64,000 bases of DNA from assembly GCA_963721805.1 (NCBI GenBank), contig CAVRJY010000002.1:192001-256000 (forward strand), written 5' to 3'. Every line of letters begins with the position of its first letter. Within the stretch, counting starts at the first letter, position 1. Below are positions 8,547-13,236 of this stretch, one piece after another. The notes under the pieces are model-generated. The model saw only the letters and a program-made list of their open reading frames with translations, made no database searches and had not been told where the DNA came from. A program made the translations under genes and the position numbers. The DNA comes from Nitrospirota bacterium (GTDB taxonomy: Bacteria; Nitrospirota; Thermodesulfovibrionia; Thermodesulfovibrionales; JdFR-86).

Positions 8547-10454
8547 ATGCCATTAAACAGACGCTCCGATTGCCGTTTTGAGGTCAGGCACATCGGGCTC
8601 CCGCAGGAATGGGAGATCGTGGAGTTGTCGCGCGCGGGTGCGCTGATCGTAAACCGCGCGGCTGAGTTCGCCGAGCCCCCCGAGCCGTTTGCAGTGCAGA
8701 TAGGCCCGCTTGTGCTGCAGGCCCGCCCGATATGGGTCAGGGGCGCCGAGATGGGCGTGGCCTTCACCCCCGGCATCGAGGACGTCAAGGTCCCGAGGAT
8801 CTTCGCCTTGCGGCCGCACGACGAGAGCTTCCCCGCCATGATACAGATACCGGCCGACGAGTTCTCGAAGTACAGCGCCGAGGACACGATCTGCACGCTC
8901 GTAAACTTCATGGTCGAACTCGACAGCCCCTCTACGGACATCAACAAGCTCAAGAGCTTCATCGAGCAGATCGGCGAGCTGGGCTCCGGCGATGACGCCG
9001 CCGCTGCCGAGCCGCCACAGGCCGAACCGCCGGAGGGCAAGCCAAAGCCCCTGCCGCCGAGTTCGAGGCTGCTCAAGCAGGTGCTGATGGACAAGGCCTG
9101 CGAGGGCGGCCGCTGCGAGGGCGTAAACGAGGTCAACATAGATTTCGCGATCTCCCTCCTTGGGCTCGAGCAGCTGAAGTCCGTCACGCGCGGCTTCGCG
9201 CAGAAGAAGCTCGCGCAGGTCAGCTCCTCGATGAAGAGCTTTAAAAGCTACAGCGCGTACACGACGCTCAAGACCGTGCTCTTTAACCGCATCTCGCAGC
9301 TCTTCGGCTACCAGGACCCGGATGGCGAGGGGGCCTCGATACTCCAGTTCGAGACCGCCGGGATCGAGGCCCTGATCAACCGTTCCAGCGGCGTACTCGA
9401 TGCCTACTACACCTCGGCCACGCGCGTCTACAGCAACATGTCGCGCCGGTACGAGCGCGCCCTGTTCGGCAAGGACCTCATCGAGGTCAACCGGCACTTC
9501 TTCGATAACCTCGGCGAGTTCGACGCGATGTACGGCGGGTACGTCATGGCCCACCAGGCCCTGAACATGCAATACCTGCCATCGCCCGAGCTGAAGATCA
9601 CGATCAACAAGGACGCTCTTAATTTCTCGCTCGTCGCTCACATGACCTTCCTGGGCCTGAAGTTCGCTATGGACCGCGACCGCGTCTCGGGGCTCATCCT
9701 GATACAGAAGCTCATGGGCCGCGGCCTGAACTCCACCAAGGCCGGCGACTTCGTCAACGACTGCGTGAGCGAGGCCAACAAGGTGCTCGACGACTTCGGG
9801 ATGAAGGGCAAGATAGGCGTGGCCTCACCCCCGCCGAAGTCCTCGATAGTGCTCAAGTACCTCCCGGAGACCCCGAGGTACAAGCACATTATAGACACCT
9901 TCCGGAACTTCGAGCAGTCGCAGAGCCGGCGGCTCGCGCTCCGGTACGAGGACTCCTCATACGCGCACTTCATTCTCAGGCGGCTCATAAACGACCCCGA
10001 CTGCCTGCTGAGCCGCCGCGCGAGCTGCGTGGTGCCCTGCGCCAACCTCTCGGAGCGGCCGCTGTACCTCGACGACTTCTCGAACTTCGACCTGCTGATA
10101 TTCAAGGACATCGACCGCCTGCCATCAAACCACGTGCGCGACTTCATCAGGATATGGAACTCCTTCGAGGGCTCGATAGTCGTGACGTTCGACAAGTTCA
10201 GCTTCATCGACTACACGCTCAGGCCGCTCTATACGATCCTCAAGGACAACGTGGTGGACTTCCCCTCGTATTTCGCCGAGGACGAGACTTACAGGCGCAT
10301 GGTCGGGCACACGCTTGAGTGTCTCGTACCGTATCTGGGCGGGAAGGCCCCGGAGTATGCGGCGCCAGATAATGGCCAGGGGCTGTTTCTTGACCGGGTA
10401 TATACGATGGACTATATCTTCTCGCGCACGTTCCTCACGAAAGAGATTATCTAG
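8547..10454 (+). CDS. Multidomain protein: PilZ-like N-terminus, HDOD-like middle, degenerate AAA-like C-terminus
   Basis: RRSDCR and ELSRAG PilZ-like motifs; IDFAISLLGLEQLK HDOD-like motif; LLIFKDIDRL Walker-B-like segment; host-like codon usage. Confidence 0.6.
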   Translation: MPLNRRSDCRFEVRHIGLPQEWEIVELSRAGALIVNRAAEFAEPPEPFAVQIGPLVLQARPIWVRGAEMGVAFTPGIEDVKVPRIFALRPHDESFPAMIQIPADEFSKYSAEDTICTLVNFMVELDSPSTDINKLKSFIEQIGELGSGDDAAAAEPPQAEPPEGKPKPLPPSSRLLKQVLMDKACEGGRCEGVNEVNIDFAISLLGLEQLKSVTRGFAQKKLAQVSSSMKSFKSYSAYTTLKTVLFNRISQLFGYQDPDGEGASILQFETAGIEALINRSSGVLDAYYTSATRVYSNMSRRYERALFGKDLIEVNRHFFDNLGEFDAMYGGYVMAHQALNMQYLPSPELKITINKDALNFSLVAHMTFLGLKFAMDRDRVSGLILIQKLMGRGLNSTKAGDFVNDCVSEANKVLDDFGMKGKIGVASPPPKSSIVLKYLPETPRYKHIIDTFRNFEQSQSRRLALRYEDSSYAHFILRRLINDPDCLLSRRASCVVPCANLSERPLYLDDFSNFDLLIFKDIDRLPSNHVRDFIRIWNSFEGSIVVTFDKFSFIDYTLRPLYTILKDNVVDFPSYFAEDETYRRMVGHTLECLVPYLGGKAPEYAAPDNGQGLFLDRVYTMDYIFSRTFLTKEII

Positions 10455-10477
10455 GCCGCTTCCGAGCGTCTTTCTTC

Positions 10478-10652
10478 AAAGCGCTCCAAATCGCTTGATA
10501 CTGCGTTGGGCATTCAAAGACTCGCCCTCTATGTACGTCCCAGTACACCATCGGGCGGTCTTCTCGCCCTGCCTTGTCTGAAGACGATTTGGGCGCGCTT
10601 TCGGGGGGCACGGACGAAGGACGCCCCCCGCGCCCCACGAGGTCAAAGGCAT
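10478..10652. repeat. Palindromic dispersed repeat, family 1 copy A (about 124-bp core plus GC hairpin)
   Basis: Near-identical reverse complement of 18659-18832; ends AAAGCGCTCCAAATCG / CGATTTGGGCGCGCTTT. Confidence 0.9.
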
Positions 10653-11054
10653 GTTCTGATGTCCGCGCTTAGGTATAGTTACGCATTCCGCGCGCATGCG
10701 CGCGCGTTTTTGCAGTTTTTGTTCGGATGCTGGGCGTAAAAACGCGGCTAACTTCCTGAAAAACCTCATTAGTTTGTCAGCCCAATGTTCGGATGTTCGG
10801 ATAAAAACCGCGCTTTTTGGCCCATTATCCGAACAAGCTATCCGGCCTCCCGCTGCCTCTGTCCAGCCCGTTAAACATGACGCTATCATGCTCATGCCAC
10901 CACTATACACCAAAGAATGCCAAACTTTGGTTTATATATAAACCTAAGTTGATAGGAAAAATTAGGGGCCATGCGTTTTCTACTAACTTACGATTAACTA
11001 TAGTTAGTTATTTATGCTAACATGCAAATAGTTTTAATTATTGGAGGGTAATAA

Positions 11055-12191
11055 ATGAGCAAGACTGTTTTTATATTAGGTGCGGGCTTTTCGGCTCCGG
11101 CAGGTATTCCGGTGCAGGACAAAATAATGACTGCTGTTCCACAATCCGTGCGTGATAGGAAATATTTTAATCATGTCACCAAATATTATTCTGATATTTT
11201 CAGGATTGAAAAAATCACAGATTATGGGAAGATTCCGCTTGAAGATATATTTACATTTTTTGATCGCGCTATTGCAAATGGGGAAGATACTAATGCTTTT
11301 TCCTATCGCGACACAATACAGATTCAAAGAGCCTTTAGAAAGACAATCGCTATGGTTATCTACAATAGCATGCGCTTATTTGTTGAAGATGAATCAAAAG
11401 GCGATATTAGAAATGCATACAGCGATTTTTTTAGTGAAGTGGTAGCGAAAAGGATTGAAAACAATGCAAATGACTATGACCCGCTAGCTATATTAAGTAC
11501 AAACTGGGACACATTGCCTGAATATTTCATCCAACTGATAGAAAAGAAGTTAAAAAGGAAAATAATGTTTGACTATTGTTGTTATGATTATGACTATTTC
11601 GAGAGGAAGGAGAAACATACACCATCAATTCATCTGAAGGCTAAAGGTTTTTATAATATTAAAATACATAAATTGCATGGCTCTCTGAACTGGAGCTATT
11701 GCTCTAATTGCGGAAGGTTGTGGCTGAAGCTTCGCAGTAAGTTCCCTCCTGTATTCTTCGAGAAACAGGCAAACAATTGTCATAATTGTGAAAACGTGCG
11801 GTTACGTCGGTTATTAATAATGCCGACGATGCTTAAAGATATAAATAACACCCATCTAAAAATGGTTTGGCATAATGCCCTGATGGATCTTCAAGAAGCA
11901 GAGAGAATATTTTTCATCGGTTATTCCTTTCCTCTTGCTGATTTTGAATTCAGGTATATGCTTGCCAAAGCTATCGCAGGTGGAAAACGAAAAAAAGTTC
12001 GTGCAATATTATATCCGCCAGATAAGGCTCAAGGTCATTTTCTGAGACTGGGTGATTATAAGAAAGCGCTCATGATAAGGGATGATACAGCAGAGCGATA
12101 TTGTAACTTTTTTGGTGGGCATGATTTTCAGTGTAAATATATGGATGTAATAGATGTTATGAAAAAACCTGATATTATCTGGGATTGGTGA
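11055..12191 (+). CDS. SIR2-like (sirtuin-fold) protein with CxxC..CxxC Zn ribbon; candidate defence NADase
   Basis: FILGAGFS, STNWD, KLHGSLNW, CSNC..CHNC and FIGYSFP motifs; GGAGG RBS; much more AT-rich than its flanks. Confidence 0.85.
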   Translation: MSKTVFILGAGFSAPAGIPVQDKIMTAVPQSVRDRKYFNHVTKYYSDIFRIEKITDYGKIPLEDIFTFFDRAIANGEDTNAFSYRDTIQIQRAFRKTIAMVIYNSMRLFVEDESKGDIRNAYSDFFSEVVAKRIENNANDYDPLAILSTNWDTLPEYFIQLIEKKLKRKIMFDYCCYDYDYFERKEKHTPSIHLKAKGFYNIKIHKLHGSLNWSYCSNCGRLWLKLRSKFPPVFFEKQANNCHNCENVRLRRLLIMPTMLKDINNTHLKMVWHNALMDLQEAERIFFIGYSFPLADFEFRYMLAKAIAGGKRKKVRAILYPPDKAQGHFLRLGDYKKALMIRDDTAERYCNFFGGHDFQCKYMDVIDVMKKPDIIWDW

Positions 12192-12216
12192 TAAGAATCG
12201 TGGAGTTTAAGCTCGA

Positions 12217-13236
12217 CTAAAACAAGCTCTGCGGTATCTTGATGCCGAGATGTTCGTACGCCCCGCGCGTTGCCATGCGGCCGCGTGGCGTGCGTTCTAT
12301 CATCCCTACCTGAAGCAGAAACGGCTCGCAGACGTCTTCCAAGGTATCGCGCTCCTCGCTCAGGGATGCGGCCAAGGTCTCAATACCGACCGGCCCGCCG
12401 CCGAACTTCTCGATCATGCATCTTAAGAACTGCCGGTCGAGGTCGTCGAGTCCCAAGTGGTCGATCTCGAGCGACTTAAGCGAGCTTTGTGCCATCTTTA
12501 TGTCGATGGACCCGTCGCCGAGCACCTCGGCGAAGTCGCGTACGCGCCTCAGGAGCCGGTTTGCTATGCGCGGCGTGCCGCGCGACCGGCCTGCTATCTC
12601 AAGCGCCGCGTCCGGCGTAATCTTCGTTCCCAGTATCGCGGCCGATCTGATTACGACCCGCTTCAGTTCCTCCGGAGAGTAGAACTCAAGGCGGCTTACC
12701 ACCCCGAAGCGCGCACGCAACGGAGAGGTCATCAGGCCCGTTCTGGTCGTCGCGCCGATCAATGTAAACCTCGGAAGGTTGAGCTTGAGGCTCCGGGCGT
12801 TCGGCCCTTGGCCTATGATGATATCTAGCTGGTAGTCCTCCATCGCGGGGTAGAGCACCTCCTCGACGACGCGCGAGAGGCGGTGTATCTCGTCGATGAA
12901 CAGGATGTCGAACTCCTGCAAGTTCGTGAGTATCGCGGCAAGGTCGCCCTGCCGCTCGATCACCGGGCCGGAGGTCGACCGGATGTTGACGTTGAGTTCC
13001 GAGGCTATGATGTGCGCGAGCGTGGTCTTCCCCAGGCCCGGAGGGCCATAGAAAAGGACGTGGTCTAGCGCCTCTTTGCGCTTCGCCGCGGCCTGCAGGA
13101 ATACGCGCAAGTTTTCCTTGAGCTTGCCCTGCCCTACGAACTCCTCGAAGCTCCGGGGCCGGAGGCTGAGTTCCAGCGCCGAGTCCTCGCCCTTAAGCTC
13201 GGGGGCTACGGGGCTGTCGTCTTCGCGCCTAGCCAA
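12217..13236 (-). CDS. ruvB: Holliday junction branch migration helicase RuvB
   Basis: [29 protein letters not shown] and [14 protein letters not shown] motifs. Confidence 0.97.

Follow-up and report, generated by a model that had tools for sequence, protein, structure and literature searches.

What could a sirtuin gene be doing on its own, in an islet of AT-rich DNA set against ruvB? The question is raised by a 64,000-nucleotide (nt) stretch of a Nitrospirota genome (assembly GCA_963721805.1, contig CAVRJY010000002.1, positions 192,001 to 256,000), called the window below; the genome, G000, is 94% complete and its contigs are labelled C1, C2 and so on. A first examination of the letters, the sequence-only reading, had described here an AT-rich block with one sirtuin-motif open reading frame (ORF) of 378 amino acids (aa), a CxxC..CxxC insert and an end 25 nt from the ruvB stop. 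Coordinates, motifs and guanine plus cytosine (GC) content were all verified. It had also proposed a single-gene defence module, and we estimate at a little under 60% the probability that the product, hereafter the SIR2 protein, is, as sequence comparisons suggest, a horizontally acquired, self-contained anti-phage effector that consumes nicotinamide adenine dinucleotide (NAD) and acts by single-gene abortive infection. One-gene phage defence appears probable because the family usually sits among antiviral genes. The SIR2 fold, the foreign origin, the lack of a partner and the defence context of homologs were all recovered, while NADase activity and phage protection are the part of the proposal that we infer.

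NAD+-depleting SIR2 enzymes are a recurrent weapon in bacterial immunity and, to our knowledge, those characterised all rely on a fused sensor or on a partner (SLOG, HerA, pAgo, STAND or C-terminal repeats). If the present family protects against phage, it would provide a minimal model of a sirtuin sensing infection alone.

The SIR2 protein carries the motifs LGAGFS (residues 8-13), STNWD (148-152), KLHGS (206-210) and IGYSF (288-292), as well as two cysteine pairs, C216-x2-C219 and C242-x2-C245. The sirtuin motifs are not due to chance, as judged from Pfam, PADLOC, an AlphaFold2 model and structure matches. Pfam SIR2_2 (PF13289) gave 23.4 bits (E 6.9e-5), just under its cut-off of 24.5, and several homologs bear a precomputed PF13289 label; a six-frame search of the genome with the same model returned no match at E<=0.001. 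Pfam SIR2 (PF02146) scored 19.8 bits (E 8e-4), below its cut-off of 24. With PADLOC, 14 generic SIR2 models and two Aga_SIR2 models matched in part (E<=0.1), with a best E of 6.9e-11, the best Aga_SIR2 match being restricted to residues 3-41.

An AlphaFold2 model built from a 30-sequence alignment reached a predicted local distance difference test (pLDDT) value of 93.4 and a predicted template modelling score (pTM) of 0.91. In an exhaustive structural comparison with VIA-align, the nearest chains were the Sir2 subunits of SIR2-HerA (Nezha) systems, namely PsSIR2 8w9l, 8yhx_G and E. coli Nezha Sir2 8j4u (Z 21.0, 19.7 and 17.5, over 285-304 residues), followed by Sir2-Af1 (14.7), ThsA (14.4), KomC (14.3), then SIRT6/7, Avs5, SirTM and FAM118B (10.9). 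Twenty-one PDB chains had a Z of at least 8, and the top 21 rows among the matches listed were sirtuins without exception. The top Foldseek matches were all SIR2-HerA Sir2 (E ~4e-10), and the family profile retrieved only two PDB sequences at E<0.01, both again SIR2-HerA Sir2. The sirtuin structural alignment covers residues 1-377 of the 378-aa protein. Among 193 family sequences, N150 and H208 are present in all and D152 in 192. These three residues align with N163, D165 and H212 of PsSIR2, termed catalytic in the accessible text of PMC11472057; the Asn and Asp also align with TNYD of SIR2-HerA Sir2, and H208 with ELHG of the CobB-like protein of relative G005. We concluded that the SIR2 protein, as modelled, has a sirtuin fold with intact catalytic Asn, Asp and His, in agreement with the sequence-only reading. 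A two-copy complex prediction scored 0.31 against a mark of 0.42, which is neutral as to self-association.

The defence context was evaluated on 80 genome loci holding homologs, using a greedy ORF caller of our own; two were dropped as the SIR2 ORF was not recovered (L009, L071), and L078 had no complete neighbour. PADLOC matches at E<=1e-25 were found for 23 of 145 adjacent genes (20 of 77 loci), as opposed to 5 of 90 distant genes, defined as those at a distance of over 5 kb and five or more genes in the same loci (Fisher p 0.022, odds ratio 3.2). Defence enrichment around homologs, which the earlier proposal had suggested surveying, was therefore detected. The adjacent matches comprise type I, IIG and III restriction-modification (R-M), HerA, SIR2, AbiU, ZorA, SngC, NERD-UvrD, HNH, a one-transmembrane (1-TM) effector, and PDC-S14, -S21, -S25, -S60 and -M34; Gabija is also among the defence neighbours of homologs. 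Around the closest genomic homolog (L007, 49% identity) there are SoFic (E 6e-118), radical-SAM, type I-like methyltransferase, NERD and STAND-like genes. Another (L112, 47%) stands beside DndB, a class-V aminotransferase, a helix-turn-helix protein, a small ion-channel-like protein and an insertion sequence integrase, and the member of L045 is placed between hsdS and hsdR, inside a type I R-M operon.

Members also occur in E. coli, in 13 of 5426 complete genomes, so that the question is directly testable in a laboratory strain. In both E. coli records inspected (L105, NZ_CP024889.1, and L106, NZ_CP070914.1; 12007-13104), the gene directly follows that of the primase and closes a P4-like satellite located at tRNA-Thr, and the int-psu hotspot of the same elements holds DRT3 or a SIR2+ATPase pair. 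The terminal slot of the satellite is a second cargo position, distinct from int-psu. Rousset et al. (PMC9122126), in the part of the paper at hand, list uncharacterised SIR2 genes at the int-psu hotspot and do not describe the terminal position. The E. coli member is annotated as hypothetical, and its accession was not found in the literature searched. Searches with tblastn gave no homolog in phage records, which is neutral for a defence role, and five weak matches (23-26% identity) in plasmid records.

A number of observations weigh against an anti-phage role. The enrichment is modest (p 0.02) and only indicative, because the loci are related and the distal ORFs of our crude caller may be shorter. 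No curated defence model claims the family, SIR2_2 being under its cut-off and the PADLOC matches partial and generic. In the window itself the gene is flanked by ruvB and an orphan ORF, with no defence gene next to it and no classical defence island, and the neighbours of three members of the same clade (L008, L010, L031) gave no informative match. Synteny is kept across eight Odoribacteraceae or Porphyromonadaceae loci (L039, L048, L050, L054, L057, L059, L061, L062), where PALP, BrkB, START-like and LptF/G genes accompany the family member and a GC deficit is lacking; these members look vertically kept rather than freshly mobile. The last points against concern the zinc module and the lack of a canonical sirtuin in this genome, and they lead to a first alternative.

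After KLHGSxNW, family members carry a CxxC, some 22 residues and a second CxxC. All four cysteines were found in 178 of the 193 family sequences, none in 13, and an intermediate number in 2, a nearly all-or-none pattern as expected of a metal-binding tetrad. HMMER placed the His and the four Cys in register with Sir2-Af2 (1ma3), and hhalign gave the same register with the canonical 256-aa sirtuin of G005; the first CxxC begins 8 residues after the catalytic His in all three. A common His-8-CxxC-~20-CxxC register is indeed shared with the canonical sirtuins (CobB, Sir2-Af1/Af2, Sir2Tm, Hst2), to which the Rossmann core aligns at Z 12-14.7. In the available portions of PMC12700824 and PMC11472057, the zinc module is described as needed for deacetylation and as missing from defence sirtuins. 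The SIR2 protein could then be a sirtuin that modifies proteins or small molecules, as lysine deacylase or ADP-ribosyltransferase, with a regulatory or housekeeping function. It might even replace a missing CobB type: this role is conceivable because no PF02146 sirtuin was found in this 94%-complete genome, and 6 of 10 relatives have one (~260 aa). The synteny beside housekeeping genes in Odoribacteraceae and Porphyromonadaceae goes in the same direction.

We nevertheless consider this alternative unlikely. The NCBIfam CobB models (NF001753, NF001752, NF040867, NF010736) gave 13.3-22.5 bits against cut-offs of 221-395, and Pfam SIR2 is also below its cut-off, so that the housekeeping CobB, syntenic across the lineage, that would have spoken against the sequence-only reading was not what we found. 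At the substrate-loop position, in a sequence comparison only, the SIR2 protein reads LLIMPTMLKD against ATVSFGQAMP in the canonical sirtuin of G005. The SIR2 protein contains no FGE/FGQ tripeptide, P257 and K261 do not vary at that position across the family, and the canonical GIPxFR reads GIPVQD, without the Arg. The protein is about 120 residues longer than canonical sirtuins, owing to a helical insert and a C-terminal region; the nearest folds are defence Sir2, with a margin of about 6 Z units; and the gene is an extreme GC outlier, of foreign composition, non-syntenic and absent from 10 of 10 relatives. Lastly, 4 of these 10 relatives are likewise without a canonical sirtuin, so that its absence here needs no replacement.

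If the protein is an anti-phage effector, the zinc module makes it an unusual one. The accessible text of PMC11472057 reports no zinc finger in bacterial defence SIR2 proteins, and there are no cysteines at the corresponding position in 8j4u and 8w9l; the SIR2_2 proteins of the ThsA, KomC, Avs5, DSR1/2 and FAM118B type ('SIRim') are likewise said, in the published parts at hand, to be without it. Because the zinc module is retained here while the cited papers describe SIR2_2 sirtuins without it, the family reads, at the sequence level, as a mosaic, in which the core and the N- and C-terminal motifs are of the defence type but the zinc module is of the canonical one. The Cys4-bearing family counters the statement that defence sirtuins lack a zinc finger, taken as a generalisation, and it offers a handle on the kinship of deacylating sirtuins and immune NADases. 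The 13 zinc-less sequences comprise those of L010 and L031 and 11 database proteins (e.g. P0022, P0037-P0039, P0046); the ones included in the tree form a single group. These zinc-less sequences amount to a natural experiment on the role of the module.

A word-index search returned 397 relatives, mostly of 340-450 aa and labelled 'hypothetical' or 'SIR2 family'. Exhaustive HMMER searching gave 3686 clusters at E<=1e-3, 975 at E<=1e-10 and 136 at E<=1e-30 (clusters at 50% identity). The best 150 HMMER representatives were all of at most 550 aa, and no relative was found as a fused, longer form of 663-2000 aa, which is weak evidence. The family thus exceeds 130 clusters at 50% identity, spread over many phyla and reaching E. 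coli satellites, and consists of small proteins with no conserved partner. We found no description of it in the literature searched, many subscription papers and supplements lying outside that search.

We concluded that the SIR2 gene has been horizontally acquired, because it is a GC outlier, has no counterpart in genomes of the same taxonomic family and belongs to a tree that cuts across phyla; the sequence-only reading was right on this point. GC content falls from 0.55-0.68 to 0.30-0.45 between ~10,900 and ~12,200, and returns to 0.58-0.62 at 12,200, at the ruvB stop. The islet has a GC of 0.358 compared to a genome mean of 0.603 (standard deviation 0.053, n=8508 windows of 1.3 kb), and only 46 of the 8508 windows have a GC of 0.378 or less. 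What had been described as one foreign AT-rich block is so for the SIR2 gene; the left ~125 nt (10883-11008) turned out to be a repeat module with some 30 copies in the genome. The closest homolog, 80% identical over its full length, is on a 1.3-kb contig, and no other exceeds 52% identity. Within the same taxonomic family, a full-length homolog was found in none of 10 genomes, and one genome of the same order has a 39% match. In a maximum-likelihood tree (quick search, 97 rows, with Shimodaira-Hasegawa-like approximate likelihood ratio test, SH-aLRT, as only support), the SIR2 protein falls in a 20-row clade (SH-aLRT 98) with members from Nitrospirota, Planctomycetota and Spirochaetota and from the sources Geomonas, Longimicrobiaceae and Angelobacter; at other points of the tree, members from Enterobacter and Pseudomonas branch within Bacteroidota. 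Gene GC was under flank GC in 63 of 73 loci (median difference -0.046), the window being the extreme (-0.255). Two copies of the clade are decayed: one, lying between secA and nfeD, is broken up into two ORFs (229 and 156 aa; L014:8001-9218), and the other is a C-terminal fragment of 58% identity beside a DDE transposase (L149:1466-1819).

Among known systems, the Sir2 of SIR2-HerA comes closest. Besides the structural likeness given above, the two groups share GAGxS, TN(W/Y)D and KLHGSxNW (8w9l, 8j4u, 8sub), a size of 360-415 aa, and a bilobed build in which a helical small domain is inserted after the first strand-helix unit. Identity to the SIR2 protein is only 12-18%, however, and the Cys4 following KLHGSxNW is found, of the two groups, only in the family of the SIR2 protein. 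ThsA (Thoeris), KomC (Kongming), Avs5 (Z 12.0-12.5) and FAM118B share the fold, and KomC also has the motifs LGAGFSxPxxLP and FIGYSF in common with the SIR2 protein. According to the parts of the literature at hand, several among ThsA, KomC, Avs5, DSR1/2 and FAM118B are activated by oligomer or filament formation. Unlike ThsA, KomC, Avs5 and DSR1/2, the SIR2 protein has no SLOG, STAND, pAgo-APAZ or long C-terminal sensor, its 378 aa being all sirtuin fold, and the window locus has no TIR, KomA/B or pAgo neighbour. For Thoeris, no SLOG or TIR match was found in the SIR2 protein or its neighbours; for DSR1/DSR2, Avs5 and SPARSA, no fused or paired sensor was found in the protein, among the best 150 relatives (by their size) or, in the case of pAgo, in the neighbourhood.

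AbiH of Lactococcus is a single-gene abortive-infection protein of ~350 aa. A weak likeness was seen at the C-terminal (I/L)G(Y/H)S..D motif, but membership in AbiH (PF14253) was rejected, with no match at E<=0.1 and an hhalign probability of 1.5% against the AbiH-family protein of G161. Alignments of the SIR2 protein with single sequences by hhalign were uninformative in further comparisons.

The likeness to SIR2-HerA raises a second alternative, in which the gene would be an orphaned or decaying part of a multi-gene system, inert alone or with its partner elsewhere. Two such systems were encountered around homologs. The first is a four-gene operon, c1-c3-c2-SIR2, found in 16 loci (L066:5244-8969, L011, L016, L038, L047, L060, L067, L070, L072, L073, L076, L081-L085) of a branch with 26-37% identity, where genes for proteins of ~200, 147 and 450 aa directly precede the one for a zinc-ribbon SIR2 (400-450 aa). 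Its hosts are Bacillota, Planctomycetota, Nitrospirota and Bacteroides, and at times the gene of an AlwI-type restriction enzyme or of a serine recombinase borders it. None of the partners has a Pfam match, one weakly touches PDC-M19A, and c2 matches only unnamed atlas clusters; this operon is a candidate for a multi-gene system not yet characterised. In the second situation, another SIR2_2 gene is present within four genes of the family member in 8 loci, 7 of which also have a HerA-type ATPase (L023, L024, L026, L040, L044, L055, L075, L086; 7-8 complete pairs). No third gene is mentioned in the accessible text of the paper that types Sir2-HerA systems. As to the closest solved relatives, they need HerA for activity (PMC11472057, portions at hand), and the broken clade copies at L014 and L149 would be consistent with decay. 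In a separate observation, family members of L012 and L013 are directly beside an Aga_SIR2-like SIR2 gene, two different sirtuins thus adjoining each other.

These arrangements do not extend to the gene of the window. Its 20-row clade holds no operon partner and no HerA-adjacent member, and outside the distant operon branch no neighbour family recurs widely (E<=1e-3), the commonest being the second SIR2_2-type gene mentioned above. When all recurrent partners were searched in this genome by tblastn, only three marginal P-loop matches were obtained (E 3e-5 to 7e-4), outside the window; for HerA itself E was at least 3e-5. A scan with the HerA model PF01935 gave only weak P-loop matches in the genome (at most 29.6 bits), also outside the window, and this model rings in 14 of 14 control genomes as well, so that HerA is neither adjacent nor convincingly present. 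The ORF is intact with every conserved residue and has a full-length homolog. Moreover, the three HerA-system chains enter the structural alignment only at residues 26-36, so that their first 25-35 residues have no counterpart in the SIR2 protein; this segment may include the alpha1 helix, reported to contact HerA in the accessible part of PMC11472057. An orphaned component is, on these grounds, very unlikely. The SIR2 gene has no conserved partner, as proposed from the sequence: conserved neighbour families are confined to one distant clade, the partners of that clade are absent here, and the lack of fused forms adds weakly to this.

The locus itself was compared with those of relatives. The absence of an adjacent HerA, TIR or pAgo gene was confirmed, the neighbours being the 635-aa ORF and ruvB (Table 1). 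ruvB is present in 10 of 10 relatives, and the order ruvC-ruvA-ruvB is kept in the 5 with extended loci. The SIR2 gene is absent from all 10 same-family genomes, but an empty insertion site, the other half of the comparison suggested earlier, is not demonstrable, because the DNA past the ruvB stop differs between genera. A pair of genes (~268 and 429 aa) lies past ruvB in three relatives (L107:7295-9384, L110:7148-9243, L108:1726-4113), converging on ruvB in two of them, with small ORFs intervening in the third. No tblastn match to this pair was found in the present genome at E<=1e-15, and its absence indicates that the DNA past ruvB was replaced in this lineage. On the other side, the 635-aa ORF has no Pfam, PADLOC or NCBIfam match and is absent from the 10 same-family genomes. 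It was rejected as a co-transferred partner, given its native GC and the terminator-like hairpin and 600 nt of repeats that intervene. The same hairpin, 5' of the SIR2 gene, suggests that the latter may form its own transcription unit.

Table 1. Features of the SIR2 locus (window positions) and cargo sites elsewhere in the genome (contig positions)
Feature	Position	Strand	Basis or remark
Upstream orphan ORF, 635 aa	8547-10454	+	native GC; atlas score only 0.77
Composite dispersed repeat, whole 600-nt spacer 5' of SIR2 gene	10455-11054	.	repeat searches
~180-nt structured repeat copy, most frequent module	10470..10652	.	hundreds of blastn matches, 85-98% identity, genome-wide; limits approximate
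Terminator-like GC hairpin then T run, between 635-aa ORF and SIR2 gene	10689..10706	+	consensus match only
Four ATCCGAACA iterons, AT-richer repeat module	10720..10835	three -, one +	only 4 matches in the 64-kb window vs 0.38 expected
End module 'D' of composite repeat, abutting cargo gene	10883..11008	+	30 copies in genome
GGAGG, Shine-Dalgarno-like	11043..11047	+	7 nt 5' of SIR2 ATG; direct reading
Gene of SIR2-fold stand-alone protein, 378 aa	11055..12191, stop codon included	+	ORF call, ATG start; Pfam, PADLOC and AlphaFold2 support
N150-W151-D152 codons (NAD ribose-contacting Asn/Asp of sirtuins)	11502..11510	+	conservation; alignment to TNYD of SIR2-HerA Sir2
H208 codon, catalytic His of KLHGS	11676..11678	+	conserved; aligned with KLHGS of 8j4u, 8w9l
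Four-Cys zinc module C216, C219, C242, C245	11700..11789	+	register with 1ma3 and G005 sirtuin; putative metal binding
Spacer, 25 nt, between convergent SIR2 and ruvB stops; sharp GC step	12192..12216	.	ORF positions, GC profile
ruvB, native right-hand boundary	12217..13236	-	Pfam RuvB_N E 2.8e-81
Cargo sites	C1:1009945-1011255, C4:190227-193679, C5:48842-49666, C1:1252596-1253582, C1:1056468-1057248, C1:855022-855786		

The composite repeat in front of the SIR2 gene, whose iteron module has inverted repeats I1, I2 and I9, occurs in other copies in the genome (e.g. C1:124641-125162, C1:480082-480438, C4:189362-189940, C5:87222-87673). For the 30 copies of the end module, the 1.2 kb beyond the module has a mean GC of 0.504, compared to 0.629 on the opposite side, and flank GC is below 0.48 in 13 of the 30 copies against none on the other side. 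Twenty ORFs from these 13 cargo islets were scanned; 11 have a Pfam match, nine have none, and 4 have a PADLOC match (E<=1e-5). Their products include a KAP NTPase (PDC-S20/PifA-like, E 3e-59), a 1150-aa HD-CE+TPR protein, a Cthe_2314-type HEPN protein, a HATPase_c+DUF4325 protein, an MNT-HepT pair (PDC-S09) and a DUF5677 protein, and also a radical-SAM enzyme, a sulfotransferase and a histidine kinase. From these matches the other cargo on the composite repeat looks defence-like. We concluded that the SIR2 gene is cargo in one of a set of repeat-linked slots often holding conflict genes.

Such mobile or exchangeable DNA, together with the P4-like satellites and transposase neighbours of homologs and the MNT-HepT toxin-antitoxin pair among the slot cargo, would also suit a conflict gene of another kind, either a toxic NADase stabilising its own element by addiction or an anti-plasmid or anti-satellite gene. 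However, no conserved small antitoxin-like ORF is found beside family members, the 46 nt from repeat to start codon and the 25 nt past the stop contain no ORF, and most annotated neighbours of homologs are anti-phage systems. We hold this possibility to be highly improbable.

For the preferred reading, an anti-phage effector working alone, the following course of events may be proposed. The gene would have arrived in the genome as cargo on one end of the abundant composite repeat, which carries other conflict-type cargo at further sites. In the uninfected cell, the helical small domain (~21-135) would hold the NAD pocket closed. A phage-derived cue, sensed by the small domain and/or the zinc module directly, or through self-assembly, would open the pocket; this and the preceding step are drawn by analogy from PsSIR2 and ThsA. 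Asn150, Asp152 and His208 would then cleave NAD+, by hydrolysis or ADP-ribosyl transfer, and NAD+ depletion or modification of an essential target would halt phage replication. The NADase chemistry, autoinhibition, trigger and phage protection are all inferred. A broader picture, rather unlikely with all its parts together, would make the family a missing link between immune NADases and zinc-dependent deacylating sirtuins, with a HerA-type core and a Cys4 kept or regained. It would be a one-protein sensor-effector whose zinc module reads the phage cue, delivered here by a gene-capture arrangement so far undescribed, made of the abundant structured repeat and an iteron module, one end of which collects low-GC, defence-type cargo.

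Some minor results on the locus and its genome remain to be given. A promoter scan gave 6 candidates against 5.1 expected by chance, no tRNA gene was found within the 64-kb window, and no Rfam family matched positions 10300-12400. A 26-nt similarity between 10832-10857 and the end of ruvB was ascribed to chance (local alignment score 19, compared to 17.9 +/- 2.2 for 300 shuffles). At the low-GC site C1:511 kb, neither Pfam nor PADLOC gave a match for three small cargo ORFs. This site is one of a few in which the genome's other 1.3-kb windows of lowest GC (0.33-0.36) are concentrated, the remaining ones being C1:1452-1453 kb, C1:739 kb, C6:3.5-4.2 kb, C2:3-11 kb, C1:1312 kb and C4:308 kb.

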